DNA from: a bacterium | Lineage (GTDB): Bacteria; Patescibacteriota; Dojkabacteria; GCA-016699595 | Direction: 5' to 3' | NCBI GenBank assembly: GCA_016699595.1 | Contig: CP064982.1 | Span: 75,647-139,646 of the forward strand | Length of the DNA stretch: 64,000 nt | Part shown: positions 3,893 through 51,262 of the stretch, one piece after another | How positions within the stretch are numbered: position 1 is the first letter of the stretch | Layout: every line of letters begins with the position of its first letter | Translations under genes and position numbers: made by a program | Notes under the pieces: generated by a model | Database searches by the model: none | What the model was told of the DNA's origin: nothing | What the model saw: only the letters and a program-made list of their open reading frames with translations

Positions 3893-3912
3893 ACTTGCAT
3901 TATCTTGATAGT

Positions 3913-11078: not shown

Positions 11079-11083
11079 ATAAA

Positions 11084-14269: not shown

Positions 14270-14306
14270 ACTTCTCTCGAAGTAATTCGCTGGCTTATAT
14301 TTTTTC

Positions 14307-14334: not shown

Positions 14335-14341
14335 CATCTTC

Positions 14342-14668: not shown

Positions 14669-14858
14669 TTTTTGTTTTTGACTGTCTTCAAAACTTTCAA
14701 ACAGCCTCACAATCGCTTAATTACCATATATTACATAGTATTATATGCGGTATTATATAGACATAACTTTTTCTTGCTATATTTACTAAAGAAGCTTTCG
14801 CAAAAACACGAATTTCACTTTGAGATAAGATATCTAGGTTGTTAGATTCCTTGTTTGT

Positions 14859-14867
14859 TGATATAAT
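14859..14867 (+). promoter_or_regulatory. extended -10 box TGaTATAAT, 7 nt upstream of the uvrA(N) GTG start
   Basis: TG at 14859-14860, TATAAT at 14862-14867; GTG start at 14875. Confidence 0.35.
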
Positions 14868-14874
14868 CACACTC

Positions 14875-21773: not shown

Positions 21774-24113
21774 CTAAAATTCTAAATTTTCCCAATCGCG
21801 CTCGTTTTCATAAACATAATTCTCTTTTTTGTTTATTCTCCAACTAGGATGTTTAAAATCGGCAATTCCTCCCATAATTTCAAAATCATAACTTGCTTTT
21901 TTCGCTTTAATCCATTCTTGAAGTGTTTTATTTTTGTCTGCTGTTTCTTGTGACATTGCAGTACTTCCTGATTTTGTATCAAGCAAATAAACTTTGTTTT
22001 CTTTTTTTATAATAAAGTCTGGATAAAAAAGCCGGTTTTTCTTTTCTTGTGTGTCGTAGTATTCAATAGCAAAAACATTTCTTCCACTATCTTCTTGCTT
22101 ATGCCACCAATCAATATCTTGTGATTCTAAAAATTCAATAAATTTAGTTTCATTATCTTTTCCTTTGTAAACTTTTTTAATATAAAATTTTTCATAAACA
22201 TTTTTTGATGCTTTTAACTCTTCAAAATCTTCTGTATAACTCATTTCTTGCTCTGGAATTAGAGTATCAAAAATATCTTTTTCTTCTTTTTCTTTTATTT
22301 CAATATTATAAGTTGTTCTAAAATCAATAAGTGCTTTGTGAATAGCTTTTTTTAACTCGCTATTTGGATTTAAAAGTTCATTTACAATTATTTTATACCA
22401 AACACTTCTATCTAAACCAAACCTTGTACTAAACCAAACATTTAAAGCCTGTTTTAATTGCCCCCATGATCTTGATGGATTGTATTTTGCTTCGTCAAGT
22501 TGCTGCTTTTTTAGTTCTTCAAAACAAAGTAAGTTATAAAGTCTTTCAATATCTAATTGTGAAAAATGATAATCTAAGTTTTTACCTTTATCTTTAATTT
22601 CTTTTACAAAATTATCAAAACTTTCAATTTCTGCATCAACGATTATTTGATTATTTACGTTTTCTTGATAAAGATTTATTTTCCCCTTTACTGCTGTAAT
22701 ATTTTCAGAAAAGTCTATAATTAAATTATCTTTGGTTCCAAAATATTCATCTAAAGTCTTTTTAAAAGATTTTTGCCATAAAGGAGGAGGTGTCAAAGTA
22801 TTAAAATCTGTTCTGTGATGAAAAATTGTTTCAAGTCTAATTTGTAAAACATCTTTTTTAAGTTTTGTATAATAAATCGGAGATTTGTTTCCGTTTTCTA
22901 CTTCTTTTATATCTTTAATATGACTTTTATTATAATTTGTGTAAATATATGCTTTGTTTAGTTCTTCTTTTTCATAATGATGGCCTTCAGGCATTCTTTT
23001 TATTCTCCCTATTATTTGAGTATGAAACGAAGGACTTCCAATTTCTCTAAACATAACCAAAACATCAGCTCTCGGACAATCCCAACCAGTCGCAGGAGCT
23101 ACTTTGAAAATCATGAAATTAACTTCATTATTATTTTTTTCTATTAACTCAAGATTTTTCTTTTCGTTTGATAACCAAATGGCAATTTCATTTTCTTTTA
23201 CTCCTTTTTGTTTCAAAAACGACAAAACCATATCTTTTTTGTTTGTTGCTACATCTTCTTTTTCTTTTTCATCACTTGGAAGTTGTATAAGAACAAGAGG
23301 ATTGATTCCAAGTTCTAAATCGTCATAATATTTTTTTAGTTCTAATCTTTTTTTGAAAGCAAGTTCAAGCATTATTTCATCTTCACTCAGTTCTTTATTT
23401 TCAAGTTTTATAATCTCTTCTTCTGTTTGGATAATGATTTTTTCTTTTATCAGCCCACTTTTGATCACATCTTCTTCCAAAACTTCTACAAAACCTGCTT
23501 TCTTTTGATTTATTTCACTAATATTTGGCAAGTCTTTTGGGGTTGCTGTAATTTTTAAAATAATTCTTGGATCTATAAGTTCAATAACTTCATTTGCAAG
23601 TGTTGTATTCGTTTCCGTATGTGCTTCGTCAATTATCAAAACAAGATCTCTTTCTTTTTTTGTTTTTTTAATAAATTCATCAAAAACTCCAAATTCTCCT
23701 TCTGTGTGTTCGTTTGGTTTTTTTAATTTTTTTGATTCTTTATCTGTTCCTTTTATTTTTGCCCAGTTGATAAAGAAAATATTGTTTTTATAAAGTTTTC
23801 CTTCGCTTAAATTATTTATATCTTTCAAATTCATATCAGTACCTTCATTGTAGTAATGATAGAGTTTATTTTTTGATTGAGTATAAGACTCATCTCCACC
23901 AAAAGAGATCCATAAATATGCCTTATCTTCATGAAATTGGTAATTATCATCAAGACATCTCAAAAATTCTGCCATCATTATGGTTTTCCCTGCTCCAGTT
24001 GGAGCTTTAAAAATAAGAGGGATTTTATAGTTTCCCGTTTTCCATAAATCCAAAAAAGTAAGACTTAATTGATTTATTGCCGATTCTTGAAAATCTTTTA
24101 AATGTATAGACAT
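21774..24113 (-). CDS. res: Type III restriction enzyme Res subunit (SF2 helicase + PD-(D/E)xK nuclease)
   Basis: Walker A KAPTGAGKT and DEAH box LIIDEAH; C-terminal YPDFII...VYLLDTKSG nuclease-like motif; lies immediately downstream of the mod gene on the same strand. Confidence 0.8.
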   Translation of the reverse strand: MSIHLKDFQESAINQLSLTFLDLWKTGNYKIPLIFKAPTGAGKTIMMAEFLRCLDDNYQFHEDKAYLWISFGGDESYTQSKNKLYHYYNEGTDMNLKDINNLSEGKLYKNNIFFINWAKIKGTDKESKKLKKPNEHTEGEFGVFDEFIKKTKKERDLVLIIDEAHTETNTTLANEVIELIDPRIILKITATPKDLPNISEINQKKAGFVEVLEEDVIKSGLIKEKIIIQTEEEIIKLENKELSEDEIMLELAFKKRLELKKYYDDLELGINPLVLIQLPSDEKEKEDVATNKKDMVLSFLKQKGVKENEIAIWLSNEKKNLELIEKNNNEVNFMIFKVAPATGWDCPRADVLVMFREIGSPSFHTQIIGRIKRMPEGHHYEKEELNKAYIYTNYNKSHIKDIKEVENGNKSPIYYTKLKKDVLQIRLETIFHHRTDFNTLTPPPLWQKSFKKTLDEYFGTKDNLIIDFSENITAVKGKINLYQENVNNQIIVDAEIESFDNFVKEIKDKGKNLDYHFSQLDIERLYNLLCFEELKKQQLDEAKYNPSRSWGQLKQALNVWFSTRFGLDRSVWYKIIVNELLNPNSELKKAIHKALIDFRTTYNIEIKEKEEKDIFDTLIPEQEMSYTEDFEELKASKNVYEKFYIKKVYKGKDNETKFIEFLESQDIDWWHKQEDSGRNVFAIEYYDTQEKKNRLFYPDFIIKKENKVYLLDTKSGSTAMSQETADKNKTLQEWIKAKKASYDFEIMGGIADFKHPSWRINKKENYVYENERDWENLEF

Positions 24114-24119
24114 AGTGTT

Positions 24120-26255
24120 TTATTTAATATTAAAAGTGTTTATCATATTTATTATATGATCATAAAAATCTTGCAAATCTTTTAAATCAAAACCAGTATA
24201 ATCTCCATGACTTGCATTATTTCCGATAACGATAAAAGTTTTGTTTTTCTCCCAAAATATTTTATCAAAAATATTTATTCTCTTAATTTCATCATTAAGA
24301 TTAGATAGTTTTTTACCTTCAAATTCTATGGAATTTTTAAAACATATTTCATGAGTGATGTGTTCCATACATATTCGCAGAACTCTGGCTCCATCTTCTT
24401 TATTTGAATTATCTATATGCTTTTTAGCCCTTATTATCTCATTATTTAAATTAAACCTTCTTACACTTTCTCTTAAAGTTAAATTGATTTCTTTATAAAT
24501 TTCTAATATTGGTTCTGGTATATCTTCCAAAACAATATTTTTACCAAGATAATTAAATATTTTTTTATCAATTCTTGAATAACTAAAAACATACAAGACT
24601 GTTTTTGTCTTACCTATTTTTTTTACTAAACTTTCAAATTCATCCATATTTTCACGAAAATATATAGCTGTTTTTCTGCTTTTATCTTTGTTTTCAAAAA
24701 TTTGATACCACTGGTTTGTTTCTACTTCTTCAAAAGTATTTTCTTTAATAGCTATCATTTGTCCTGCTTTTTCTGTAAGTTTATTTCTTTGCTGATCATT
24801 AATATTATCAATTCTTTCTACTGGTATTAAATCTGTTTTGAAATATTGAAGATTACCATTTAGACCCTCAATAAATTCTCCATTTCCATTTTTATTATAA
24901 CCTTTGATAACTTTTTCTAACCTTGGATATGTTACTCTTTGGCAAATTCCAAATTTTTCTTTGTCTTCATTTGGATTTTTTTCTGCAAGTTCACTTCCTA
25001 CTCCGTTTAAATCATTATTAGTACATAAAATAAATCTACGATTCCCATTATCTTCTTTGTTCAATTGTAAAATCGCTTGTCCTGTTGTGCCTGACCCAGC
25101 AAAAAAATCTAAGATTGTAGAATTTTTATTTTCATAAGTAATACTCTCTATAAGATATTTAATTAATTTTGTTGGTTTGGGATAATCCATAGGAGAAATT
25201 CCATCAAACAAATTTTTTAATTCATTTGTAGCATCTGTATTTGTCGCTCCATCATTTATATATTTGCTATATAAACTAATTGGTGCTTTAATTCCAGCTT
25301 CTCTATTTGATATTTCTAATGTCGCTCTTAATGTTTTTATGCTTTTTATATATATAATTCCATTATCACTACTAATTGCTTCATTTATTTTTTCTTGAGA
25401 CCACTTAAATCTTCCTTCTAAAATTATGTCTTCATTTGCAATTCCATTTTCAATAATTAAATCATTTTTGAGATAAACTTTTAGTTCTCCATTCCCATAA
25501 ATTCCAGATTTTAATTCTCCATTATATTTAGAGCCTATTATTGTTTTTTCTTTTTTAAATAATCTTACAGCTATAGAATTTGATTTATTTAACATTTCTA
25601 TATGCTTATTAGGATCAGTCATCCCTCCTTTAAATTCTAATTTATTATTTGAATTTTTATAAACTAACACATATTCTGTTACATTTATTACTTCTCTAGT
25701 CAAAAAAGATGGTTGTGTTTTCTTGTGCCAAATAATGGGATTTAAAAAATTATTCTCTCCAAACACAGCATCACACAACAATTTTAACTGAGCAAACTCA
25801 TTGTCATCAATACTAATAAAAATAACTCCTTTTTCTGTTAGTAAATTTCTAGCAAGTCTTAATCTTTTATCCATAAAATTTAGCCACTTGCTATGCCTAT
25901 ATCCGTCTTCTTTGTCTATATATTTATCATTATAAACAAAATCTTTATTTCCAGTATTATACGGAGGATCAATATAAATTACATCAATCTTCCCTTTGTG
26001 AGTATAATTGAGACAAGTAAGAGCATGATAATTATCTCCTTCTATCAAAATATTATCATCACTATCATCAGTTTTGATTTCTTTTTCTTTTATTCTCTGT
26101 AAAATCGGAATATTATTTTCACAATCCAAAACAACTTGTTCTGGTTCTTTTTCACTATCCCAAACAAGCCCATACTTTTTAGTTTTTAGCTCTTTTTCTT
26201 GTTTTTCAACAAGTTTTAAGAGTTCTTCTTTGGATAAGTCTTGATATTTAGACAT
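24120..26255 (-). CDS. mod: Type III R-M Mod subunit (beta-class N6-adenine DNA methyltransferase)
   Basis: Motif IV DVIYIDPPYNTG precedes motif I ILDFFAGSGTTGQA (the beta-class order typical of Type III Mod); 711 aa; 6-nt gap to res. Confidence 0.85.
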   Translation of the reverse strand: MSKYQDLSKEELLKLVEKQEKELKTKKYGLVWDSEKEPEQVVLDCENNIPILQRIKEKEIKTDDSDDNILIEGDNYHALTCLNYTHKGKIDVIYIDPPYNTGNKDFVYNDKYIDKEDGYRHSKWLNFMDKRLRLARNLLTEKGVIFISIDDNEFAQLKLLCDAVFGENNFLNPIIWHKKTQPSFLTREVINVTEYVLVYKNSNNKLEFKGGMTDPNKHIEMLNKSNSIAVRLFKKEKTIIGSKYNGELKSGIYGNGELKVYLKNDLIIENGIANEDIILEGRFKWSQEKINEAISSDNGIIYIKSIKTLRATLEISNREAGIKAPISLYSKYINDGATNTDATNELKNLFDGISPMDYPKPTKLIKYLIESITYENKNSTILDFFAGSGTTGQAILQLNKEDNGNRRFILCTNNDLNGVGSELAEKNPNEDKEKFGICQRVTYPRLEKVIKGYNKNGNGEFIEGLNGNLQYFKTDLIPVERIDNINDQQRNKLTEKAGQMIAIKENTFEEVETNQWYQIFENKDKSRKTAIYFRENMDEFESLVKKIGKTKTVLYVFSYSRIDKKIFNYLGKNIVLEDIPEPILEIYKEINLTLRESVRRFNLNNEIIRAKKHIDNSNKEDGARVLRICMEHITHEICFKNSIEFEGKKLSNLNDEIKRINIFDKIFWEKNKTFIVIGNNASHGDYTGFDLKDLQDFYDHIINMINTFNIK

Positions 26256-29283: not shown

Positions 29284-30078
29284 TTGAAATTTCTTTTGGA
29301 AGTTTTATTATTCAAATTTCTAAATATGACCATGCAAACTAGAGATAATTTAAGTCAACCAGTATCAAACAAAGTGAGGATAGGTAAACTCTCAATTTCA
29401 AGAAATTTATTGAAGATACTGATATCAATAATTTTTTTTGTAGGACTGTATTTTTTAGTTTCTCCTTTTTTGCCAAGAATCAAATATAATTTGTTTGACA
29501 AGGGAAAGGTTTACTTAACATACGATACTCAGATCGAAAACTTGATCAAAGAGCAAGCGGACAAAAATAGTGAGAAAGTTGTTGATAATAAAAAAGGCAT
29601 ACCAGAAGGAAGAAGATTGGTTATTCCTAGTATCAATGTCGATTTGCCTATACTCGAGGGTGTAGATGAAAGTACTTTGTCATATGGTGTTTGGTGGCGA
29701 CCGGGAACTGGTGATCCAATCAAAGGCTCAAATATGGTTTTGACTGGTCATAGGCTTGGCTATGGTTTTTTGCCACAAGAAATTCAAGAACAATCATCTT
29801 TTTATAATTTAGATAAAGTGAAAATAGGTGACTATATCATAGTATATTGGGATGGTAAGGAGTATGATTATCAAATCAGCACAGAGGAGACTGTGTTGCC
29901 TACTGAAGCTAGAATCGAAAATCCAACTGATGAACCTCAACTTACACTGTATACATGTACGCCGGTTGGCATAAATAGTCACAGGCTTGTGAAGTATGCA
30001 AAGCCGATAAATATGCATGAAAACTCAACGACTGTAAGTTCAAGTAAATCAACGACAAGTAGTGCAAGTAGCATTTAA
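29284..30078 (+). CDS. sortase family transpeptidase
   Basis: N-terminal TM anchor; catalytic His motif VLTGHR and catalytic Cys motif LTLYTCTP (TLxTC); Ser/Thr-rich tail. Confidence 0.8.
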   Translation: MKFLLEVLLFKFLNMTMQTRDNLSQPVSNKVRIGKLSISRNLLKILISIIFFVGLYFLVSPFLPRIKYNLFDKGKVYLTYDTQIENLIKEQADKNSEKVVDNKKGIPEGRRLVIPSINVDLPILEGVDESTLSYGVWWRPGTGDPIKGSNMVLTGHRLGYGFLPQEIQEQSSFYNLDKVKIGDYIIVYWDGKEYDYQISTEETVLPTEARIENPTDEPQLTLYTCTPVGINSHRLVKYAKPINMHENSTTVSSSKSTTSSASSI

Positions 30079-34253: not shown

Positions 34254-36332
34254 ATGAACAACAAACAAAGGTTCTTAGTTTTCTTTCTTTTTTTACTGCT
34301 TTTATTATTTTTCTGTACAGGTACACTGATTTTGATAAAGAAAGTTTTTGAAACCCGTAATTATGACTATGTCGGGATAGAAAATCAAAACAGGGATTTG
34401 ATTTTTCTGACTAACTTTCAGAAGTTTAGCAATGAATTGGAATTCAGAGATTATCTAGCAAAAGTTTACGAGACAAGGAAATACTCTTTTGATGGAGGAA
34501 TGAAAGTTACCCTAAATGATTTGACTGCCACTCCTGCCGAATCAGCACCAATCTCTATCGATCGATATTCTGAAACAAATACAAGAGTGGTTGGGATAGA
34601 TGAGCCTGACAAAGTAAAAACAAACGGCAAAAGCATATTTCTGTCTGTAGAAAATCAAGACAAAAGCACACGGAATTGGCTAGAAAGTAAAATTTATCCT
34701 GATTTCTACTTCCCTTATCAATTCAAGACGAATGTACTAAATGCTTTACCAGTTGAGGATCTAAAGCAAGTTGCAGAATTGGAAACAGGAGGTGATATGC
34801 TTCTTTATAATGATATTTTGGTTGTGCTTGATTTTACTAACTATAACGATAGTAAGGAAATTACGGAACAAAAAATTGTAGGCTATAATGTGTCAGATCC
34901 AACAAATATTCAAAAAATATGGCAAATTGACTTGGATGAGAATCAGTCATATCAGGAAGCTAGGATCGTTGAAGGTAAACTTGTTGTAACGACTAGCAAA
35001 TATACTGCCAATTATGAAAATTGTGTATTGCCTTTGTATAAAATAGCAAATGAGCAATTAAATTTGGATTGTACGAGTATTTACTTCCCAAAAAATACAT
35101 ATAATTCGAATAACTTGACTACTATAACTAAGTTTGATCTTAAGACTGCGAAAGTAGAAGGTACATTTTCTGCAATGACAAACTATTCGGCGCTAATTTA
35201 CATGAATCAAGATAATATCTACTTAAGCTACCCAGAAGAACAGAACTACCCATACATTATACTTGATTTTCTTAAAACTGATGGAGTAGGTATATTTTCA
35301 AATCAGGTGATTTTGCGAATTGAGAAGATATTGAATTATGATATTTCATCAACTTCCAAATTGAATGAAATTTATGATTTGATGAGCAAGTACTTTGATT
35401 CACTAGACTCTGATCTTTCATTGAAGATGTCGAATGATTTGAATAATAAGATGGCAGAATATGCAAAGCGAAATATGCGAAGTCTAGTTGCAACAAAAGT
35501 AGTGAAAATTGACTTGAAGAATATGTCAGTAATCGCTCAAGGTAGGTTCCCGGGTCAGCTTTTGAATCAATATGCAATAGATGAATATAAAGGAAATTTA
35601 AGAGTTGCTACAACTATTGATTTATCAACCAATTTCTTTCTGCCGCAGATGCAACCTAGTAGAAGGTTCAATGAGACTGCTGAATCATTAATTGCTCTGC
35701 CATCGAACAATGGATCATTATCAGAAAATGATGTCTATGTATTGAACGAAGATCTAAACGTAACTGGTGAACTGACAGGACTAGGATTAACAGAAAGAAT
35801 ATATTCTGCAAGATATATAGGTGATAAATTGTACTTGGTAACATTTCGTAGAACTGACCCTTTTTATATAATAGATCTTTCCGATCCGAAAAGCCCTCAA
35901 AAGATTGGAGAGTTCAAAATACCGGGATATTCTGGGTACTTGCATGAAATTGATGAAAATATCATTCTTGGTGTCGGAATGGAGGGTTCAAATCTGAAAT
36001 TATCAGTATTTGATGTAACTAATTCTGCAGAACCAAGTGAAGTGAGTAAGTATATATTGAATGAATACGGTTCAGAATCTCTGTACAACCCTCATGCTTT
36101 CGTTTTTGATCCTAAGTATAATTTGCTCTTCATACCCGGTTATCAGGGTGGATACTTGTTTACGATTGATGAGAAATATGAATTGAAACTACAAAAAGCT
36201 ATAGATGGATACAATGTAGATAGAGCGATATATATAAATGACTATATTTATATCTTATCAAACAATGGGGAAATAAGAGTTTTTTCAGAAAAGACTTTTG
36301 ATAAGGTAGGGGAATACAACAATTCAAAATAA
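34254..36332 (+). CDS. secreted beta-propeller domain protein (PF09826-like), tentative
   Basis: Signal/TM at the N-terminus; 692 aa; the C-terminal half has the GYSGYLHEIDENIILGVG...KLSVFDV...NPHAFVFD pattern typical of secreted beta-propeller proteins. Confidence 0.4.
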   Translation: MNNKQRFLVFFLFLLLLLFFCTGTLILIKKVFETRNYDYVGIENQNRDLIFLTNFQKFSNELEFRDYLAKVYETRKYSFDGGMKVTLNDLTATPAESAPISIDRYSETNTRVVGIDEPDKVKTNGKSIFLSVENQDKSTRNWLESKIYPDFYFPYQFKTNVLNALPVEDLKQVAELETGGDMLLYNDILVVLDFTNYNDSKEITEQKIVGYNVSDPTNIQKIWQIDLDENQSYQEARIVEGKLVVTTSKYTANYENCVLPLYKIANEQLNLDCTSIYFPKNTYNSNNLTTITKFDLKTAKVEGTFSAMTNYSALIYMNQDNIYLSYPEEQNYPYIILDFLKTDGVGIFSNQVILRIEKILNYDISSTSKLNEIYDLMSKYFDSLDSDLSLKMSNDLNNKMAEYAKRNMRSLVATKVVKIDLKNMSVIAQGRFPGQLLNQYAIDEYKGNLRVATTIDLSTNFFLPQMQPSRRFNETAESLIALPSNNGSLSENDVYVLNEDLNVTGELTGLGLTERIYSARYIGDKLYLVTFRRTDPFYIIDLSDPKSPQKIGEFKIPGYSGYLHEIDENIILGVGMEGSNLKLSVFDVTNSAEPSEVSKYILNEYGSESLYNPHAFVFDPKYNLLFIPGYQGGYLFTIDEKYELKLQKAIDGYNVDRAIYINDYIYILSNNGEIRVFSEKTFDKVGEYNNSK

Positions 36333-42905: not shown

Positions 42906-43967
42906 GTGATGTTGAGAAATTACTCCAAGTACAAAAAGCAGGATATGAAGCGTGAACGATTTCCAGTAGGCCACTTTTCTTTGAAAAAACCAGATTTCTT
43001 TATATTAGGCAAATTTAGAGAACTAACAATTAGCTTAAGAAATCTTTCGCAAAGTCAAAAAGTTAGCTTGAAGATACTAACTTTTGTAATCATTCTTTTT
43101 CTTGCTGTGATAGTTTTATTCAACCAGTTTTCTTCTAAAAATATTGTATCCAAACTTGAGTTAAGCAATCCATTTACTACACGCAATCAAATTATCCCAG
43201 GAAACTCGTTTCGTGTTGCAGTGATAATATTCGAACAATCCGATGACTCAAGGATTGCAACAAAGTTTTTTATCTCAAAGTTTGATCCAAAAGAGCAAAG
43301 TATCGTGACTCTCAATTTTACAGATGCATTAGACTCAAGTAATCCAGACCTTTTTGCAGCTAAAAGTTTATATGAATTTGAAAACTTGATTAGAGAAAAG
43401 TTATCTTTGTATATTGACAGGATTATAGTTATTGAACCTAGTAGCTATCAAAGTAGCGAACTTATGGATCTATCACCTAAAGAATTTTGGCATATATTGG
43501 ACAGGAAATTCAAAAATATGACAAACATTGTTAACTATATTCAAGCTTTCAATAGCGATATGCAAACGAATCTAAGCGTTGAAGAGTTCTACGAAGCTCA
43601 AAGAATTGTTGGGTACAATTTGTTCTCAACTATCGATGCAAACCTATCTATACAATCAGATCTAGACAATAGATTTTTAAGCGATGATATCTCAAAAGAA
43701 CAAGCAAGAGTTGAGATAGTGAATTCTTCTGATAAAGGAGGTTTGGCACAGTATTATGCAGGTTTACTTGCAAATTCAGGAGTCTTTGTAAGCAAAATAG
43801 GGAACTTTGACTATAGTTTTGAAAGAAATGTACTTTATGTAGAAGATGTTGAGAATTACCAATCTACAATCACCTTGATAAGCAATATTTTACCTGATCT
43901 TGAGATTCGAAAACAATCACTTAACGGTTTGACGACTTCCGATATGCTACTGATTGTCCGAAAATAA
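42906..43967 (+). CDS. membrane protein with LytR_C-like C-terminal domain (LCP-related), tentative
   Basis: N-terminal TM; C-terminal VEIVNSSDKGGLAQYYAGLLANSGVFVSKIGNFD...VLYVED resembles the LytR C-terminal domain. Confidence 0.4.
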   Translation: MMLRNYSKYKKQDMKRERFPVGHFSLKKPDFFILGKFRELTISLRNLSQSQKVSLKILTFVIILFLAVIVLFNQFSSKNIVSKLELSNPFTTRNQIIPGNSFRVAVIIFEQSDDSRIATKFFISKFDPKEQSIVTLNFTDALDSSNPDLFAAKSLYEFENLIREKLSLYIDRIIVIEPSSYQSSELMDLSPKEFWHILDRKFKNMTNIVNYIQAFNSDMQTNLSVEEFYEAQRIVGYNLFSTIDANLSIQSDLDNRFLSDDISKEQARVEIVNSSDKGGLAQYYAGLLANSGVFVSKIGNFDYSFERNVLYVEDVENYQSTITLISNILPDLEIRKQSLNGLTTSDMLLIVRK

Positions 43968-44113
43968 ATACCTGCTTATTTTCAATCTTTGGTAGTAACA
44001 AATTTCACATATTTTTACATACAATTTGCTTGCAATGAATTTGAAAATTTCTTATCATAGAGTATTTATTAAATAGTACATTTTCAAGTGTAATCTAATC
44101 TAGTGTAAATACT

Positions 44114-47100
44114 ATGAACACAAATATCACTTTTTCAAACTTCGCGAATAAAAGAAACGGCAAATTAGTCATGTTTTTTTTATTAGGACTAGTTATGTTT
44201 TTCCTAATAATAACCATTTCTTTGACTTTATCAAAAAGGGACATAAATCTAGACGAGTCTAATGCTGGTAACTATAATGTCGTCAAAGACAAAGATGGTT
44301 GGTGGGTGCAGGCGGCTCCTTATTGTGAAAATTTTCCTGTAACCAATAGTCAAGGCGAATGTTCGAAAGTAACTGTAGTCAGTGGCTCTATTGTGCAACG
44401 ACTAAATCAGACAAAGAAGTGCGACAATACAGTATGTCCAGCTCAACCTTCGCCAGCGAGTAGCTGTATAGATATACAAACTTATGTCAAGGGGGACAGC
44501 AAAGATACTAATGATCAAACGAAGTGGAGGTGTACCGATGTGAGAAGTGGTAATACATGGAGTGATCCTAAGGAGAATTCTTCTGGTCAAGGCGTGAAAT
44601 GTGATGGAACTACACTTTGTCAGTCACCTGTTTGGCAAACAGCAAGTTTAGGAACTATCCAAACAATCACAGTGTGCCCTACAGTATCTAGCTCTGCTGA
44701 CTGTACAGCTGGATATGTCGGAGGGAATGGATTGAGAAAGGCGATAAATGACATACAAAATGGAGGAACGATCAAAGTAAAGAATGGAGTGTACAAAAAT
44801 ACTGAAGCTACTGATGTTCAATTTCAAGATACAACTGGAACGAGAAAAGTAGCTTACTTGATAAGAGACAAAGATTTGACAGTCCAAGGGGAATCAAGAG
44901 AAGGAGTAGTGCTTGATGGGAGTGATCCATCAAACAATGTAACAGATGGGGTGAGAGGTATAGTGAGTGTAGGAGTGAGTAAAGTAGAGATAAAAAATTT
45001 GACTGTTGCAAAATTCACCTCTCATGGTATTCTCTCTCGAGATACATCAAGTATGACAATAACAAACTCAATATCCAAAGAGAATGCACATTCAGGCATT
45101 TCCTCTTGGGATACATCGAGTATGGTAGTCACTGAATCAGTATCTGAAAATAATAGCCTTCAGGGCACACTGTTCTCGACTGGACATGGCTTTTTTGCTG
45201 GGCAACAATCAAAAATGATGCTTCGCAATGTGAAATCAATTGGTAATAGAAGAGTAGGGGTATGGATAGCAACCTCTTCTGAATTAAAAATAGAAGATAG
45301 TGAGATTCTTGCTAACTTAGATTCTGGCATAATACTAAGTGACGGAGCTAAACTCACTTTAACTTTAAAAAATACAAAGATACAAGCGAATACGATAAAT
45401 GGTATATTGTGTAGTAATTCTTCAGCTAGAATCACACCTGAGTCAATAGGCAATACAATTTCTGAGAATGGTGGTGGGAACTATGTGAGTACAAATGGAG
45501 GATGTCCGGGGACTACACTGGAAACTTTGACTGGGAGGGCTACATACACAAACGGACTTCATGTTGTATTGGTAGGTTCAGATGGTAAAAGAATGAAAGA
45601 TACAGCATATTCTCAAGAAGTACAATGTGAAGGTACTAGACATGTAGATTTCTCTTTCACTTCTGTAAGTATGTCAGGAGATAGTAGCAATACAAACTTG
45701 AGGGTTAGACCAGATCAGTGTTATAACGATGGCAAAAATCCACAGTTATTGTTTAGGACGCAAAGCAGTACAACTGAAGAAGCTACTTGGAATTTTAGGA
45801 CAACTTTCGGCGATGGATGTAGTTGGGTTTATGATAATGACTATAGAACTCCGGAGACTACGGCATCAGGTAACAATTGTTCAAACATCTCTTTTCTAGG
45901 AGGTCGAGCAACTAATGTAGACTCTATATATGCTTCTCTCACTATTAGACTTGCTCTTATTACAAATACTACACCTGCAACATCTGCAACAGGGACATTT
46001 GGTACAAATAATACTGAGCAACCAGAATTATCAACAATCACAGTTTGTCCTACTGAAGGTTCATCTAGGGATTGTACATCGGGATATGTTGGAGCTAGTG
46101 GTATTCAAGATGCATTGAACAATGTCAAAGCAGGTGGAGCGATAAATATCAAAGCTGGTGTATACGAAAATACAACAACAACCAATGTCCAAGAAGTCGG
46201 GCAAGTAGTCAAGGTTGCTTACTATGTAACTAAAAATGTAAATATAATGGGAGCGATGAGAAACAACGAGGTCGCTGTTTTTTTGGAAGGTGCAAGAAGT
46301 CAAACGGACACACTTGGAACTAGAGGCATTTATGTGAAAGACGGTGTAACAGTCAAGATTGATAATGTGGCAGTGAAAAATTATACAAGTCATGGCTTTG
46401 CGTTGTCTGGAAGTTCAACATTAAACGGTAGAAACTTGAATTCATCAGGAAATCAAGGAAGTGGATTTATCGCAGTGGATAATAGTAAATTGAATCTAAC
46501 TGATAGCTACTCAAACAACAATGTTAGAAATGGAGTTGCATTATGGAACAATTCCATTGCAAATTTGCTAAGTCTTGAAATCACAGGGAATGGACGGGGT
46601 ATAAATATTGGGGATAATAGTAAATTGAAATTAAATCAAACTGAGATTCGTGGAAATAATAATACTGTAAGCTACAAAGATAAGTACGGACTAGTTTGCG
46701 ATGGTGGAAATTCTAAGATAGAGCAGGATTCAAAGGAGAATAATTTAACACAAAATCAAGGAGGAGATTTCAAACAGTTAAATAATGGTTGTCCTGGTAT
46801 CACTGAGGCGATGTTGGAACCTACTGTAAATGTAACGACTACACCATCTCCTGTAACTACAACACCTACAACAAGCGCATCTAAGTGTATTGTATCTGGT
46901 TGTAATAGTGAAATATGTAGTGATACGAATCAAAATTCAACTTGTGTCTACAAAGAAGAATATGCATGCTATAGAACTGCAAAATGTGAGGTTCAACAAA
47001 ATGGGCAATGTGGATGGACTCAAACCTTGGAACTGATAAGTTGCTTATCTGGATCTCAAAACGGTACTACTAGTCAACAAGTACAATGTACAAAATATGA

Positions 47101-47326
47101 TTTAAATAGAGATAATAAGGTAACCATACTTGGCGACTTTACATTATTCTTGAACGAATTTGCAAATTATCCAATAAAAGCTGGCATTCGAGATTCAATA
47201 GCAGATTTCAACTCAGATCGAAAAGTTGATATAGTAGATTTTGTAATGTTTAGAAATGCTTTGTACCAATATGCTGTTACAAAAAGCTGTGATGTGACAG
47301 TATTAGAAACAGAATTTAGACCTTAA
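44114..47326 (+). CDS. giant secreted protein: internally duplicated parallel beta-helix-like modules + C-terminal type-I dockerin
   Basis: Signal/TM anchor. Two roughly 120-aa homologous segments (TVCPTVSSSADCTAGYVGGNGLRKAINDIQNGGTIKVKNGVYKNTEATDVQ... near nt 44661 and TVCPTEGSSRDCTSGYVGASGIQDALNNVKAGGAINIKAGVYENTTTTNVQ... near nt 46031). The C-terminus has two calcium-binding dockerin repeats, DLNRDNKVTILGDFTLFLNEF and DFNSDRKVDIVDFVMFRNAL (D1-N3-D5-D9-D12 pattern), at nt ~47099-47280. Confidence 0.7.
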   Translation: MNTNITFSNFANKRNGKLVMFFLLGLVMFFLIITISLTLSKRDINLDESNAGNYNVVKDKDGWWVQAAPYCENFPVTNSQGECSKVTVVSGSIVQRLNQTKKCDNTVCPAQPSPASSCIDIQTYVKGDSKDTNDQTKWRCTDVRSGNTWSDPKENSSGQGVKCDGTTLCQSPVWQTASLGTIQTITVCPTVSSSADCTAGYVGGNGLRKAINDIQNGGTIKVKNGVYKNTEATDVQFQDTTGTRKVAYLIRDKDLTVQGESREGVVLDGSDPSNNVTDGVRGIVSVGVSKVEIKNLTVAKFTSHGILSRDTSSMTITNSISKENAHSGISSWDTSSMVVTESVSENNSLQGTLFSTGHGFFAGQQSKMMLRNVKSIGNRRVGVWIATSSELKIEDSEILANLDSGIILSDGAKLTLTLKNTKIQANTINGILCSNSSARITPESIGNTISENGGGNYVSTNGGCPGTTLETLTGRATYTNGLHVVLVGSDGKRMKDTAYSQEVQCEGTRHVDFSFTSVSMSGDSSNTNLRVRPDQCYNDGKNPQLLFRTQSSTTEEATWNFRTTFGDGCSWVYDNDYRTPETTASGNNCSNISFLGGRATNVDSIYASLTIRLALITNTTPATSATGTFGTNNTEQPELSTITVCPTEGSSRDCTSGYVGASGIQDALNNVKAGGAINIKAGVYENTTTTNVQEVGQVVKVAYYVTKNVNIMGAMRNNEVAVFLEGARSQTDTLGTRGIYVKDGVTVKIDNVAVKNYTSHGFALSGSSTLNGRNLNSSGNQGSGFIAVDNSKLNLTDSYSNNNVRNGVALWNNSIANLLSLEITGNGRGINIGDNSKLKLNQTEIRGNNNTVSYKDKYGLVCDGGNSKIEQDSKENNLTQNQGGDFKQLNNGCPGITEAMLEPTVNVTTTPSPVTTTPTTSASKCIVSGCNSEICSDTNQNSTCVYKEEYACYRTAKCEVQQNGQCGWTQTLELISCLSGSQNGTTSQQVQCTKYDLNRDNKVTILGDFTLFLNEFANYPIKAGIRDSIADFNSDRKVDIVDFVMFRNALYQYAVTKSCDVTVLETEFRP

Positions 47327-47366
47327 CTAATTATTAAAAATTAATTTATAAGTAAACTTTGAATTT

Positions 47367-48734
47367 ATGTCAAAACTGCTCGGTTCCAACATTAAACTAG
47401 ATAAGAGGTTACTGACCTTGTTAATATTTCTTGCAGTAGGGGTATTGACATTGGTTGTATTATTTGTCGTGCTTGTATTACCATCTCTTGCTCCCTCTAA
47501 ATCAAGTGCAAGTAATGTAAGTGTATACCTGACACCTAGTACTGGAAATATTTCGGCTACACAAGATACAAATATTGATTTGTATATAAATACAGGTGGA
47601 ACGGAGGTTACTGCAGCGTCAGTATTCTTGAAGTATGATCCAGCTAAAGTCTCTTTACAAATTTCGCAGGGTGAAATTCCAGTGGCTTTTGTTTCTCAAA
47701 GTGCAGGAAATGATACTTTCGAAATACAGGCAGGTTTGGCAGAAAAAAATGAACAAGGAGGGATTACAGGTAGAGGATATACAGGTACTGGTATAGTAGC
47801 TAGGATAAAAGTGAAAGCATTAACTGGACAAACTTCAGGTACAGCTTCGTTATCTATCACTGATCAGTCCAGTTTGGAAATTGGCGGCAATAATACTGGA
47901 TTTTCAAATCAAAGTATAAGAGCGTATGTATATAATCTGGGAAATGCTTCTGCTGCTACTCCTATAATTGTTAATCTTACACCAGCACCAGCAAATATAA
48001 CTAATTACGATGATACTTATGTGAATATAGCTATAAGTACTGTAAATCAGAATGTACAAGGAGCAAAAGTATATCTAAGGTTCGATCCAACGAAGGTAAG
48101 TATTGAGGGCTTAGTAGGTAGTATTCCAGATTTTGGAACAAGCATATTCCAGTCAAGAATTGTAGATGGAAATACATTAGAAATTCAAAGTGGTGTTAGC
48201 CTAAGTAATCAAAGTGGGTTCAATGGCACAGGCACATTTGCAAGACTGAAGTTGCGAGCATTAAGTACTCAGAAAGGGATAACTGAAATATCTGTACTTG
48301 ATTCTTCAACATTTGGTATAACATCAACTACATGGATAGGCATTTCAACTTCAAGTGTGAAAGCATATACATTTCAGTTAAATGAAAGTGCAATTGCAAC
48401 TAGCAGTTTATCATCAAATCCGGCGACTTCGGCAGAACCCAGAAGAAGCACGAGAAGTAGTAGTTTATCATCGTCTAACTCGTCTTTATCATCATCGAGA
48501 TCATCATCTTTATCATCTAGTATGTCTGCTACCTCAAGTATTAGTAGTATCGGAGCGATTCGTACTAGTTCTCCATCAGTATCATCAGCTCTTCCTTCAA
48601 CAGGCATTCTTGATTCGTTTGGAGGTAATGAATGGATGATATATTTGTTTGTAGGTTTGGCTTTAATAGCAATAGTTGGTTTACCAATGTTAACAAAGGT
48701 AGGGAGTTTTGAAAGGTCTATAGTGAAATCTTGA
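47367..48734 (+). CDS. LPXTG cell-wall-anchored protein with two cohesin-like domains and a Ser-rich stalk
   Basis: N-terminal signal/TM. Two roughly 140-aa repeats (…VFLKYDPAKVSL…GTGIVARIKVKALTG… and …VYLRFDPTKVSI…GTGTFARLKLRALS…) resemble cohesin modules (compare CipA …YDPNVLEI…GVFATIVAKVKSG…). Then an S-rich linker, LPSTG (48591-48605), a hydrophobic segment and a charged tail. Confidence 0.7.
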   Translation: MSKLLGSNIKLDKRLLTLLIFLAVGVLTLVVLFVVLVLPSLAPSKSSASNVSVYLTPSTGNISATQDTNIDLYINTGGTEVTAASVFLKYDPAKVSLQISQGEIPVAFVSQSAGNDTFEIQAGLAEKNEQGGITGRGYTGTGIVARIKVKALTGQTSGTASLSITDQSSLEIGGNNTGFSNQSIRAYVYNLGNASAATPIIVNLTPAPANITNYDDTYVNIAISTVNQNVQGAKVYLRFDPTKVSIEGLVGSIPDFGTSIFQSRIVDGNTLEIQSGVSLSNQSGFNGTGTFARLKLRALSTQKGITEISVLDSSTFGITSTTWIGISTSSVKAYTFQLNESAIATSSLSSNPATSAEPRRSTRSSSLSSSNSSLSSSRSSSLSSSMSATSSISSIGAIRTSSPSVSSALPSTGILDSFGGNEWMIYLFVGLALIAIVGLPMLTKVGSFERSIVKS

Positions 48735-48750
48735 TATGTTATAATTCCGA

Positions 48751-49590
48751 ATGTCTGTAAGCATACTGAAAGTAAATACTCGTTTTAAGATATATCTTAC
48801 CATATTGACTATTTTTGTCTTAGATATATTGACATTCTATGGATTTCTAGGTAATTATGGGTATCTGCGCATATCTATAATTGAGTCGAGTATAGTAATT
48901 ATATCGATTTACTGGATCGTTCAAGTGTTGCATAATATTAGACTCAAAGATTTGTTTGTATTGATTATTCTACCTTTTTTGTTTACGCTTTCACTTTCTT
49001 ATTTTAGTAGAATTATATTTGTCAATGATGACTTAGTCGTTAATTCGATTCGCGGAGGAGTTTTGAGTGTTTTTTTGATAGGTTTCAAAGTTTTTGGTAT
49101 ATATAGTTTGTTGTTGAATACAAACATACTTGCTATTGCTTTGAAGCAAGATATACCTCTTGCTAGAGCAGCGAAAAGTGTAAACTATATATATTCAATA
49201 TTAACTCTGTACTTCATTGTTGTAAGTTTGTTTTCTGTAAATCTCAACTTATACTATAGATTGTTTGCTTTTGCGATTATAGTTTTGCTTCTTTGTTATC
49301 AATCATTAAGCTTTCTACACAAAATCAATAGTACAAAAAGATCTCAGTTATTACTTTTGATAGCATTTGCAATTATAAATACCTCTTTGGGTGTAATGTT
49401 ATTTCAACTCTCTCCACAAATACTTTCACTTCTATTGACGATCTTGTACTATATATTGATAAGCATTGTATATGATGAAAATAGCAAGTACAGGCTGAAA
49501 AACTTAATTGAATACATAGGTTCTTTTGCTCTTATTTTGATTGTAGTTGTGATAAATATTGACTGGGGAATATATAAAATATTCAATTAA
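48751..49590 (+). CDS. hypothetical polytopic membrane protein
   Basis: 279 aa, 7-8 hydrophobic helices; 16 nt downstream of the LPXTG gene. Confidence 0.35.
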   Translation: MSVSILKVNTRFKIYLTILTIFVLDILTFYGFLGNYGYLRISIIESSIVIISIYWIVQVLHNIRLKDLFVLIILPFLFTLSLSYFSRIIFVNDDLVVNSIRGGVLSVFLIGFKVFGIYSLLLNTNILAIALKQDIPLARAAKSVNYIYSILTLYFIVVSLFSVNLNLYYRLFAFAIIVLLLCYQSLSFLHKINSTKRSQLLLLIAFAIINTSLGVMLFQLSPQILSLLLTILYYILISIVYDENSKYRLKNLIEYIGSFALILIVVVINIDWGIYKIFN

Positions 49591-50116
49591 TGTTTTCAAA
49601 AAAAAGACTCTCTATGTTTTGTACTTTTAAAATAGAGTAGAATAGGTGGTATATCTAATTGTTAAAATGTATATAAATAGATATTCATTGTTAATTATGT
49701 AGATATCAACATGTGGTAACTGCAATAAAATAATTATCAAATCTCTAGCTTTAATATTTATCTAAATTTCGATAACTTCTAACAGGGGAGATGTGCAAGA
49801 TGCAAATACGATACACTTGCACTAACCAGAGTAACTCCGTATAATCACTCTTATACGAAGCGAAAAGGGTCAAAATAGAGCAGGTTGACAGTTTTGTGGA
49901 TAAGTTTACATGCTTACAAAAATCTATAAGTAAGAGATATTAATCGTTATGCTTGTACTGTGCGTGAATAATTTTTAGATCCTTGTAAACTTCTATTATT
50001 AGCCAATTTCACAAAACTTATGCTTTTCTCTCTTTTATAATTATTTTTTCGGAAACTTGGTACAAAAAACTATATAATATACATATCTTATTGGATGGTT
50101 AAACTAATAACTAATA

Positions 50117-51262
50117 ATGAGTACAAAGTTACCTTATAAAAAAGAATTTATAATTCATCTTAAATCATCAAATTACTCTGTCAAGACTACCAAGAGTTAT
50201 CTGCGAGATTTATGCTATTTTGAATCATTTTTAATTTATAAAGCACTAGACTTTTTGAATTTAAAGAAGATAAATATAACGGAATATAAAGCAGTACTGA
50301 AAACTGAGGAACATATCAATTTACTAGAAAACGTAAGAAATTTGGAACTTGAATTTAATCAAGATAGTAATACTAGAAAAAGAACAATTCAAAGAGGTAT
50401 AAATAATCAACTAGAAAGTACTGAAGGGCTTAAAAACGATTTTAGAGGCTCGGAAGAATCTTCCTTTTATATAAATGAGAATAATGACAATAATTATCAC
50501 CAAAACGGGGGCATAGTGGATCAATTATCTACTCAATCAATTAATCGTATGCTTTCGGCACTTAGATCATATTTGAAGTTTCTTGAAGAATTTGACTACA
50601 ATTCACCATTATCATCTGATGCCGTCAAACTGTTGAAAAAAGAGAAAAAAGAGTCTCAAGTTGCCGAATTTGATGAATTGATAAAATTGATTGAAGCGCC
50701 AAATCAATTTGAAAAAATTGAAGAGATTAAGCTTAGGAATCGAGCTATGTTAGAATTACTCTTTTCTACAGGTATGCGTATATCAGAATTAATGCGATTG
50801 AACCGAGAGCAAGTTACGCTAGGTAAAGAAGATGCTAATGTTGGAGTTTCAAGGATATATATACTTGGAAAAGGTAAGAAACAAAGGTTTGTTTATCTGA
50901 CTGATCGTGCTAAGTTGCACTTGCAAGAGTACCTAAAGCTAAGAGATGATAAACTGCCTGCATTATTCATTCAATATAGAAATAGGAGTAAACCTGTTGA
51001 TGCAACTAGAAACTATAGATTAACCGTTGATTATCTTCAGAAAAAGATTGTAGAGTATAGAAAGCTACTAGGGATAATTGTTCCAACATCTGCCCATTCA
51101 TTAAGACACGGATTTGCTACATACCTTATCGAGCAAGGCGCAAACTCTGCTGCTGTTCAAATACTTCTTGGTCATGAAAGTCTAGCTACTACCACGAGAT
51201 ATGTTCATGCTTCTGATAGATTTGCCGAAGAAACTCACAAAAGGTTTCATCCACTAAACTGA
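50117..51262 (+). CDS. tyrosine site-specific recombinase (XerC/XerD-like) with insertion in the N-terminal core-binding domain
   Basis: C-terminal catalytic domain with RNRAMLELLFSTGMRISEL (R), HSLRHGFAT (H-x-x-R) and LGHESLATTTRYVHA (catalytic Y). The N-terminal SAM-like domain is split by an ~90-aa N/E-rich insert. Preceded by a 520-bp AT-rich non-coding region. Confidence 0.8.
   Translation: MSTKLPYKKEFIIHLKSSNYSVKTTKSYLRDLCYFESFLIYKALDFLNLKKINITEYKAVLKTEEHINLLENVRNLELEFNQDSNTRKRTIQRGINNQLESTEGLKNDFRGSEESSFYINENNDNNYHQNGGIVDQLSTQSINRMLSALRSYLKFLEEFDYNSPLSSDAVKLLKKEKKESQVAEFDELIKLIEAPNQFEKIEEIKLRNRAMLELLFSTGMRISELMRLNREQVTLGKEDANVGVSRIYILGKGKKQRFVYLTDRAKLHLQEYLKLRDDKLPALFIQYRNRSKPVDATRNYRLTVDYLQKKIVEYRKLLGIIVPTSAHSLRHGFATYLIEQGANSAAVQILLGHESLATTTRYVHASDRFAEETHKRFHPLN

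Follow-up and report, generated by a model that had tools for sequence, protein, structure and literature searches.

A probable two-gene, non-cellulosomal cohesin-dockerin surface display module with a sortase-type anchor

Two adjacent genes in a 64,000-nucleotide stretch of bacterial DNA (the window) probably encode a non-cellulosomal cohesin-dockerin surface display module that is anchored by a sortase, a reading to which we give a probability of roughly 0.7. Gene A would provide the cargo and gene B the scaffold. The reading is built on the identities of the modules, the adjacency of the two genes and the conservation of the cargo/anchor pairing in related loci, each of which was observed in this analysis. 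The genes at the locus are as follows.

44114-47326, plus strand: gene A, 1070 aa, a beta-helix protein, secreted or at the surface, that ends in a dockerin and is the putative cargo (ORF, Pfam)
47367-48734, plus strand: gene B, 455 aa, a putative sortase-substrate scaffold with two cohesins (ORF, Pfam Cohesin)
48751-49590, plus strand: a polytopic membrane protein of 279 aa, 16 nt 3' of B (ORF)

Both A and its neighbor B are open reading frames where the original prediction had placed them; its word "giant" is overstated for a protein of 1070 aa. The two genes lie on the same strand with a gap of 40 nt, and no terminator-like site was found in 43800-50200, the A-B gap included. The product of 48751-49590 has no Pfam or NCBIfam match; it is a possible third member of the operon, with an uncertain place in the system. 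By exact-sequence look-up the product of A is QQR93661.1 of GenBank, where its sole annotation is "right-handed parallel beta-helix repeat-containing protein".

The dockerin of A consists of two loop-helix repeats, with the loops 35 residues apart.

47087-47290, plus strand: dockerin, aa 992-1059, with Cys992 and Cys1059 at its bounds (Pfam Dockerin_1, leave-out HMM)
47099-47137, plus strand: Ca loop 1, DLNRDNKVTILGD, at aa 996, 13 residues
47204-47239, plus strand: Ca loop 2, DFNSDRKVDIVD, at aa 1031, canonical 12 residues, DxNxDxxVDxxD

A type I dockerin is a tandem F-hand containing two 12-residue Ca2+ loops (D1, N/D3, D5, D12), each followed by a helix. Two textbook loops had been predicted; loop 2 is one, but in loop 1 an extra residue, absent from loop 2 and from related dockerins, puts the last acidic ligand at position 13, and Ca2+ binding by this loop may therefore be poor. 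The assignment of the module as a dockerin nevertheless stands. Full-length A scores 19.1 bits (E 0.0015) against Pfam Dockerin_1 (PF00404), under the GA of 22.9, whereas the isolated module is above this family-profile threshold (30 bits for the last 148 aa of A; 33.3 bits, E 5.6e-8, for the last 86 aa). A profile (A4) combining the A dockerin with three dockerins found independently beside homologous cohesin genes matches type-I dockerins in the PDB (11 of the 15 matches are dockerins; 5nrm_B at 4.5e-4), and an HMM built from the dockerins of related loci (L026/L029), leaving A out, has the A dockerin as its sole match in the window (24 bits, E 5.9e-7). The flanking cysteines are invariant in all four aligned dockerins, and a Cys992-Cys1059 disulfide probably clamps the A dockerin; the invariant Cys pair at the ends of this dockerin subtype is possibly a covalent version of the "intramolecular clasp".

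B begins with a hydrophobic segment that precedes the two modules predicted to be cohesin-like.

47406-47495, plus strand: N-terminal signal/membrane segment of B, aa 14-43 (read from the sequence)
47508-47909, plus strand: cohesin module 1, aa 48-181 (leave-out HMM, AF2, Foldseek)
47955-48347, plus strand: cohesin module 2, aa 197-327 (leave-out HMM; best Pfam stretch aa 219-320)

Whole B scores 30.1 bits in two stretches against Pfam Cohesin (PF00963), over the GA of 24.1; of the single modules, which are 35% identical to each other (alignment A2), the first reaches only 17 bits and the second has no match, so that Pfam alone is borderline for B. A cohesin HMM built without B scores 65.2 bits on module 1 and 72.2 bits on module 2, and B is its sole match among the 356 six-frame ORFs of the window. 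Searched against the PDB, profile A2, which represents the family of B modules, retrieves 33 sequences, almost all of them cohesins, with a best value of 2.3e-14. Relatives of B at E<1e-3 number 30 among 1.84 billion representatives; Pfam Cohesin is matched by nine of the ten that were scanned, and the closest (P0003-P0005) are multi-cohesin proteins that score 113-275 bits against it.

The AF2 model of module 1 (pLDDT 83.7, pTM 0.79) is an all-beta sandwich with no helix of at least four residues (DSSP) and has the flattened, jelly-roll form of about 140 residues that defines a cohesin, not an unrelated fold; the single-sequence model of module 2 is poor. In a Foldseek search of the PDB with the module 1 model, the top 23 matches are cohesins at probability 1.0, the best being 2xdh, 2vn5, 6kgf, 1g1k, and 2vo8 (TM 0.62-0.75). 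In type II and type III cohesins the core sandwich is elaborated by an extra alpha-helix and beta-flaps, and such an assignment (ScaE-like or SdbA-like) was rejected for module 1, whose model has no such helix; the type-III cohesin of ScaE (2zf9) and R. flavefaciens cohesins also rank, at TM 0.55-0.61, below type-I and non-cellulosomal ones. The modules of B are interpreted as two type-I-like cohesins.

The pairing of cargo and anchor recurs in related loci. In L026 and L029/L030 a beta-helix-dockerin gene is likewise followed by a cohesin gene with an LPSTA anchor; the cohesins are 29-35% identical, and the dockerin 36% identical, to those of the window. Members of this L026/L029 group are 52-73% identical among themselves, and only for two lineages, that of the window and this group, which are deeply separated, is the exact gene order on record. 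L026 contains two cargos, one a beta-helix protein and the other FGE-sulfatase-like, whose dockerins are 55% identical and which lie beside three cohesin genes; the use of one dockerin type on several cargos is cellulosome logic. Cohesin and dockerin genes are clustered in L031 and L032 as well. Recurrence of the order [beta-helix + dockerin] then [cohesin + LPST(G/A) anchor] at about 30-35% identity supports a functional coupling of A and B, and this conserved adjacency is the strongest new evidence for the coupling into a display system that had been predicted.

The same observations make it rather unlikely that A and B act independently, with B a fibrillar adhesin whose cohesin folds are only stalk or adhesive Ig-like domains, and with the EF-hand pair of A a Ca2+-dependent stabilizing or glycan-binding module that has no cohesin partner. 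Independence would fit the borderline Pfam scores, the atypical loop 1 of A, and the non-cohesin beta-sandwiches that appear among the lower-ranked Foldseek matches (the CLIPPER adhesin domain 9ifr and YcnI); dockerin- and cohesin-like modules are also common without proven partners, according to the passage of PMC9012536 that cites Peer et al. 2009. It does not fit the finding that cargo-dockerin and anchored-cohesin genes are still adjacent at about 30-35% identity, nor the sharing of one dockerin type by two unrelated L026 cargos beside cohesin genes, and dockerin binding is proven for the cohesins that rank highest by sequence and by fold.

The C-terminal part of the scaffold carries the predicted Ser-rich stalk and LPSTG sorting signal, and a sortase is encoded elsewhere in the window.

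48399-48590, plus strand: Ser-rich low-complexity stalk of B, aa 345-408 (read from the sequence)
48591-48731, plus strand: cell-wall sorting signal of B (LPSTG, spacer, hydrophobic helix, basic tail)
29284-30078, plus strand: sortase, the presumed transpeptidase for B (Pfam, TIGR01076, motifs)

The LPSTG (aa 409-413; 48591-48605) is followed by an 11-residue spacer, a hydrophobic helix of about 19 residues (aa 424-442), and the basic tail TKVGSFERSIVKS (K, R, K); the DNA encoding the stalk contains only a weak 12-nt repeat. Among the real ORFs of the window B has the sole LPXTG-type C-terminus, and LPST(G/A)-(I/L)-(L/F)-D with a TM segment and a K-rich tail is kept in distant homologs (P0009, P0013, and L026:1696-2373). 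B therefore has the C-terminal LPXTG, hydrophobic helix, and positive tail by which a sortase substrate is recognized, in a genome that encodes a sortase. The sortase, correctly predicted at 29284-30078, scores 91.4 bits against Pfam Sortase and 74 bits against TIGR01076 (cutoff 39.35), and has the motifs GHR..TLYTC..HR with a catalytic TLYTC; no class-specific model scored above its cutoff for this protein. Since it is 17 kb upstream of B, the sortase gene is outside the operon. An L,D-transpeptidase in the window implies peptidoglycan.

Outside the dockerin, A contains an N-terminal hydrophobic segment, a duplicated beta-helix, and a cysteine-rich module.

44165-44227, plus strand: N-terminal hydrophobic segment of A, aa 18-38, after basic KRNGK (read from the sequence)
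44654-45535, plus strand: beta-helix repeat 1, aa 181-474, opening with the cap motif TITVCPT..CTAGYVG..IKVKNGVY
46022-46825, plus strand: beta-helix repeat 2, aa 637-904, an internal duplicate of repeat 1
46826-46879, plus strand: Thr/Pro-rich linker, aa 905-922 (read from the sequence)
46880-47065, plus strand: eight-cysteine module, aa 923-984, directly N-terminal to the dockerin

The N-terminal segment would be a Sec signal peptide or, if it is not cleaved, a signal anchor; it is about 21 residues long, charged residues come next, and there is no obvious AXA site nearby, so that A might stay tethered to the membrane rather than being released. Were this the case, A would be held by its uncleaved helix while its dockerin enters wall-linked B, and the two would form a strut from membrane to wall, or else a loop that keeps the beta-helices within or atop the wall. 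This envelope-spanning arrangement is judged unlikely: the length of the segment and the charged residues after it are signal-anchor-like, and the cargo proteins of L026 and L029 have the same N-terminal design, but a ..DNR(A/T)KA motif about 10 residues past the helix is conserved in relatives and, by eye, could be a signal-peptidase site. The tethered arrangement and the display module involve the same cohesin-dockerin interaction.

The beta-helix that had been predicted in A scores 81 bits against Pfam Beta_helix, with the best stretch at aa 282-441, and 39 bits against NosD. Repeats 1 and 2 are 35% identical (BLASTP, E 6e-39), and the cargo proteins of L026 and L029 have beta-helix domains to which repeat 2 can be aligned. 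The eight-cysteine module has weak matches to TIGR04289 and TIGR04292; its homologs P0031-P0035 are 58-71% identical and have a precomputed assignment to Pfam PF27854, and the module is found elsewhere as a stand-alone small secreted protein. In the PDB the beta-helix profile has only weak matches, among them the AlgE4 epimerase at E 0.025 and an alginate lyase of family PL6 at E 0.65.

A cellulosome sensu stricto consists of dockerin-tagged CAZymes acting on plant cell walls and a scaffoldin with a CBM or equivalent targeting; this assignment was rejected, as Pfam and NCBIfam place no GH, CE, PL, or CBM family in A or B. Lacking any CAZyme or CBM, the pair is cellulosome-like in logic only, and the original description as "cellulosome-like" holds for the logic and fails for the enzymes. 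A bona fide mini-cellulosome for plant polysaccharide degradation is very improbable, as the cohesins, the dockerin, a right-handed beta-helix fold that pectate and alginate lyases also have, and the weak epimerase and lyase matches are set against the lack of over-threshold enzyme or binding families in A and B, a source genome of 0.76 Mb, and a co-clustered L026 cargo that is FGE-sulfatase-like and not a cellulase.

For the two-gene display module we infer the following course, from secretion and processing by the sortase to the Ca2+-dependent binding of dockerin to cohesin, its stoichiometry, and the activity of the cargo. B would be exported via its N-terminal signal, after which the sortase of the genome would cut it at LPST/G and join it covalently to peptidoglycan; the Ser-rich stalk of about 65 residues would hold the two type-I-like cohesins outward. 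A would be exported via its N-terminal hydrophobic signal, and its C-terminal dockerin, with two Ca2+-binding F-hand repeats, would dock non-covalently into a cohesin of B. The cell surface would then show at most two copies of the double beta-helix protein per B, or B could alternatively carry other genome-encoded proteins with the same dockerin type. The beta-helix cargo would most likely bind or modify polysaccharide of some other surface, for instance that of a host cell or matrix.

To our knowledge, the ways in which ultra-small, host-dependent bacteria build and decorate their surfaces are largely unknown. A cellulosome-style kit without cellulose enzymes, recurring in related uncultured bacteria, may explain such decoration, and the defined, syntenically conserved anchor-cargo pair offers a directly testable model. 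It would extend the principle of the sortase-anchored scaffoldin beyond Ruminococcus to a non-cellulolytic setting. A cohesin profile and a dockerin profile also come out of the analysis; they cover modules that are in part missed by standard Pfam scans, and could be used to take stock of the displayed repertoire in such genomes. A more speculative and less likely proposal is that the operon is one instance of a minimal system for surface display, widespread yet undescribed in ultra-small CPR/Patescibacteria-like bacteria, in which sortase-anchored mini-scaffoldins capture a few cargos (beta-helix and FGE/lectin-like) through a lineage-specific, disulfide-clasped dockerin and the cell thereby attaches to or attacks the host envelope; if true, this system would be the physical basis of episymbiotic adhesion.

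The closest known parallel in architecture is ScaE of Ruminococcus flavefaciens and R. champanellensis, a cohesin protein that is attached to the wall by a sortase through an LPXTG-type signal and captures dockerin proteins (CttA, ScaB XDoc) (PMC4611034; PMC11557425). Like ScaE, B is a cohesin protein with a C-terminal LPXTG-type signal and a proposed wall anchor, and the ScaE cohesin 2zf9 is among its fold matches. The cohesin of ScaE is single and of type III, and the complex it anchors is large and cellulolytic, whereas B has two type-I-like cohesins (best fold matches 2xdh, 2vn5, and 1g1k), is accompanied by neither cellulases nor CBMs, has its cargo gene directly upstream, and comes from a 0.76-Mb MAG that is probably of Patescibacteria/CPR and not a Firmicute. 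Sca2 of the Ruminococcus bromii amylosome is a small scaffoldin with a cohesin and a sortase signal that displays dockerin-tagged non-cellulolytic proteins (PMC4611034). B resembles it in being a small cohesin scaffold with a sortase signal and non-cellulolytic cargo; the cargos of Sca2 are GH13 amylases whose binding is proven, whereas that of the window is a beta-helix protein presumed to bind.

The best structural matches to cohesin 1 of B are the non-cellulosomal modules of Archaeoglobus fulgidus (2xdh) and Clostridium perfringens (2vo8, 2jh2, 2ozn), which, as proposed for A and B, function outside cellulose degradation. In C. perfringens, toxin and glycosidase subunits are linked to one another by these modules, and we know of no sortase-anchored double-cohesin scaffold encoded beside its cargo in either of these systems. 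Archaeal cohesin-dockerin pairs have been reported to bind specifically (PMC9012536). The original view that such systems are rarely described outside cellulolytic Firmicutes is true only in part: catalogues of non-cellulosomal cohesin and dockerin modules already span bacteria and archaea (Peer et al. 2009, cited in a passage of PMC9012536). ANME archaea have dockerin/cohesin proteins with a proposed role in surface assembly or adhesion (PMC9012536), and in the Saccharibacterium Southlakia epibionticum the dockerin-domain protein SEML1_0315 is reported to be essential (PMC10633639). Both cases concern organisms attached to partner cells, and both reports are domain annotations without a defined anchor-cargo pair; for the window, by comparison, the sequence predicts one definite pair of this kind, sortase-anchored and conserved in synteny.

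Gene A encodes a right-handed beta-helix protein ending in a dockerin, and the gene that follows it, B, encodes a protein with two cohesin modules and a sorting signal; the analysis supports A and B as a cohesin-dockerin display system. The features of the two proteins, and the two cell-wall genes of the window that bear on anchoring, are as follows:

44114-47326, + strand: gene A, ORF of 1070 aa
A, aa 18-38: hydrophobic segment of ~21 residues, preceded by a basic stretch
A, between the hydrophobic segment and the beta-helices: N-terminal region containing Cys
A, between the second beta-helix and the eight-cysteine module: Thr/Pro linker
A, aa 923-984 (46880-47065): eight-cysteine module, pattern CxxxGCxxxxCS..C..C..C..C..C
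A, C-terminal end: dockerin, two Ca2+-loop motifs at aa 996 and 1031
47367-48734, + strand: gene B, ORF of 455 aa
B, N-terminus: signal or TM segment
B, modules 1 and 2: ~130 aa each, 35% identical to each other
B, after module 2: Ser-rich stalk of ~65 residues
B, C-terminus: sorting signal made up of LPSTG, spacer (11 residues), hydrophobic helix (~19 residues) and K/R tail
29284-30078: sortase (Pfam 91 bits; TIGR01076 74 bits against a cutoff of 39.35)
7967-9601: L,D-transpeptidase

The two genes run in the same direction with 40 nt between them, and no hairpin resembling a terminator was found across 43800-50200. A gene for a 279-aa polytopic membrane protein (48751-49590), which matches no Pfam or NCBIfam family, begins 16 nt 3' of B and, with no terminator after B, may be co-transcribed with the pair. 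Protein A corresponds by exact-sequence look-up to QQR93661.1, annotated as "right-handed parallel beta-helix repeat-containing protein". The window is unremarkable chromosomal sequence with a GC of ~33-34%, and its genes include those for DnaB, RF1, EF-P, an RluD-like protein, HtrA, Ctp, and YchF. An EF-P-based scan of 185,579 species genomes gave best matches of only 42-43% identity, one of the two best belonging to a Patescibacteria MAG, and did not lead to a syntenic locus. Taken with the small size of the genome, these matches make it likely that the organism is CPR/Patescibacteria-like.

Several other features of the window were recorded. UvrA is apparently split into two ORFs: the first (14839-16344) is the N-terminal part, with UvrA_inter and UvrA_DNA-bind domains, and the second (19920-21542), an ABC_tran ORF of 540 aa, could represent the C-terminal part; the ~3.5 kb between them holds two MFS transporter genes (16423-17718 and 18626-19879) and two small ORFs. 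At 10001-12000 the GC content reaches 0.44, compared with ~0.33 for the window. Two ORFs lie in the segment 9753-14269: one, of 441 aa, has no NCBIfam match; the other encodes a Cys-rich secreted protein of 1061 aa that starts at TTG, contains an S/T/R linker, and matches neither Pfam nor NCBIfam. A low-GC island (21774-26255, minus strand; GC 0.26-0.27), probably horizontally acquired, encodes a ResIII/SNF2 helicase together with an N6_N4 DNA methylase, a pair resembling Type III restriction-modification. A 692-aa protein (34254-36332) matches Beta_propel (PF09826) very strongly (354 bits) and is a probable further surface protein.

The identity of the B modules was assessed at several levels. 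Pfam Cohesin passes on whole B (30.1 bits against a threshold of 24.1); scanned singly, neither module passes (17 bits and no match), and independent evidence was therefore sought. Word-indexed homolog searches with full-length A and B yielded at most fragments of the queries themselves, the candidates probably having been crowded out by low-complexity Ser/Thr words. The relatives of B were instead obtained by searching 1.84 billion representatives exhaustively with HMMER, using only the cohesin region; this gave 30 proteins at E<1e-3. Pfam Cohesin matches nine of the ten relatives scanned, and the closest three are multi-cohesin proteins scoring 113-275 bits. One relative (P0005, 919 aa) carries three cohesins (124 bits) fused to a NosD/beta-helix region (150 bits), joining on one chain domain types that the window encodes on separate genes. 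A scan of the genome contigs for B relatives found none.

Comparison with known structures needed a profile, as phmmer of B against PDB gave no significant match. The profile of a 35-row cohesin alignment matched 33 PDB sequences, essentially all cohesins, including ScaB (3l8q, 2.3e-14), CipC (1g1k, 2e-11), SdbA, and NagJ. Single-sequence AlphaFold2 prediction of both cohesins was unusable (pLDDT 44); repeated with the 35-row alignment it was confident for module 1 alone, giving an all-beta sandwich (pLDDT 83.7, pTM 0.79). In a Foldseek search of PDB with this model the top 23 matches were cohesins: first the non-cellulosomal A. fulgidus cohesin 2xdh, then cohesins of C. cellulolyticum, C. acetobutylicum, and C. 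perfringens (TM 0.62-0.75, probability 1.0 for these). An HMM built without B scored 65 bits on module 1 and 72 bits on module 2 and matched nothing besides B among the 356 six-frame ORFs of the window. The two cohesin-like modules of the original prediction hold for whole-protein Pfam, PDB profile, and leave-out HMM alike, and the structural check, which covers module 1, agrees with them.

The same prediction had described two textbook calcium loops at the C-terminus of A. Both are present and the second is canonical, but the first carries a one-residue insertion, which places its last acidic ligand at position 13. Pfam Dockerin_1 scores 19.1 bits on full-length A, under the GA of 22.9, and rises above it when the C-terminus is scanned alone (30 bits for 148 aa; 33.3 bits, E 5.6e-8, for 86 aa), which bears out the assignment. 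Phmmer of the A dockerin against PDB found no significant match, and again a profile was needed. Alignment with three dockerins from related loci (L026:1405-1656, L026:4563-4805, and L029:1258-1503) gave 18 invariant positions, and the four-dockerin profile matches type-I dockerins in PDB (5nrm_B, 4.5e-4; dockerins make up 11 of 15 matches). With an HMM from the three relatives, the C-terminus of A is the sole match in the window (24 bits, E 5.9e-7).

Dockerins of C. thermocellum carry a Ser-Thr pair at repeat positions 10-11; in A these positions are hydrophobic (IL and IV). The invariant positions include a flanking Cys pair that brackets the repeats in all four dockerins, one Cys lying just ahead of repeat 1 and the other beyond repeat 2; in A these are Cys992 (47087-47089), at -3 relative to the first repeat, and, at the C-terminal end, Cys1059 (47288-47290). 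The three relatives have a second, internal Cys pair. The clasps reported at the position of this flanking pair in other dockerins (PMC3821032) are all non-covalent; from its placement, the Cys992-Cys1059 pair may form a disulfide clasp and so be a covalent counterpart of the "intramolecular clasp" known from dockerins.

The remainder of A is dominated by two right-handed beta-helix domains (Pfam Beta_helix 81 bits, NosD 39 bits), which are internal duplicates (35% identity, E 6e-39). No enzyme family could be assigned to them: profile comparison with PDB gave weak matches alone, the best being AlgE4 epimerase (E 0.025) and PL6 lyase (0.65), and phmmer of full-length A against PDB gave no significant match. 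The eight-cysteine module resembles small stand-alone secreted proteins (P0031-P0035, 58-71% identity), one of which (P0031) has it in tandem duplicate; the precomputed family is PF27854, and a TIGR04289 match is weak. The module might be read as the X-module of an XDoc dyad, but it is missing from the related cargos on L026 and L029, and as a conserved feature this reading was therefore rejected.

The pairing of cargo and anchor recurs elsewhere. Self matches aside, the relatives closest to B are P0009 and P0013; both are single-cohesin proteins with a B-like ending (LPSTA(I/L)FD followed by a TM segment and a K-rich tail), and their contigs were retrieved. The 20-kb contig with P0009 (L026, 33% GC) reads:

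Gene 1: TM, beta-helix, C-terminal dockerin
Gene 2: signal, cohesin, LPSTA anchor
Gene 3, 2394-4808: TM, FGE-sulfatase-like domain, C-terminal dockerin
Gene 4: cohesin without an anchor
Gene 5: P0009, cohesin with LPSTA
Gene 6, 6206-14653: 2815-aa protein directly after P0009, in which no Pfam match or dockerin loop motif was found

Two further contigs (L029 and L030) have the order beta-helix-dockerin, cohesin-LPSTA (P0013), FGE-like. Between the window and L026/L029, cohesins are 29-35% and the dockerin 36% identical, against 52-73% between L026 and L029; with the order the same at such low identities, cargo-then-anchor is conserved across two deeply separated lineages. At two further loci (L031 and L032, 44-50% GC), cohesin genes likewise cluster with dockerin-bearing genes. 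The dockerins on the two different cargos of L026 are 55% identical, and one plug type on several cargos is the cellulosome principle. The FGE-sulfatase/SUMF1-like domain of the second cargo (L026:2394-4808; L029:2257-4143) scores 24.3 bits in Pfam, barely over GA, and suggests that lectin-like proteins or proteins with the formylglycine-enzyme fold are among those displayed.

Anchoring has its own components in the window. B alone among the window ORFs has an LPXTG-type C-terminus, and its stalk and sorting signal are as originally described. The predicted sortase is likewise upheld by Pfam, TIGR01076, and the GHR, TLYTC, and HR motifs together, with no class-specific model passing its cutoff on this ORF. 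The presence of the L,D-transpeptidase points to peptidoglycan synthesis by the organism.

The module identities, the adjacency of A and B, and the conserved pairing are direct observations; for the mechanism beyond them we infer from established cohesin-dockerin and sortase knowledge. B would be exported, cut by sortase between the Thr and Gly of LPSTG, and joined to peptidoglycan, its Ser-rich stalk crossing the wall and holding out the two cohesins. A would also be exported, and its dockerin would plug into a B cohesin in a Ca2+-dependent manner, so displaying the double beta-helix as an adhesin or glycan-active module. A cellulosome proper was rejected because no CAZyme or CBM was found in A or B.

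Non-cellulosomal cohesins and dockerins have been broadly catalogued (Peer et al., 2009, as cited in PMC9012536); ANME archaea have many of them (PMC9012536), and in a Saccharibacterium a dockerin-domain protein is reported to be essential (PMC10633639). Within the literature library searched, nothing joined cohesin, sortase, and Patescibacteria, and in the titles and abstracts of the four papers found on cohesin, dockerin, and CPR no such anchor-cargo pair is apparent. Sortase-anchored scaffoldins are known as ScaE of R. flavefaciens and R. champanellensis and Sca2 of the R. bromii amylosome (PMC4611034; PMC11557425). The A-B system follows the same sortase-anchored scaffoldin logic but differs from these in having no CAZyme or CBM in A or B, in cohesins whose character is that of type-I-like or non-cellulosomal modules and not of type III, in a minimal operon of cargo then anchor only, in the Cys-flanked subtype of its dockerin, and in a host that is not a Firmicute.
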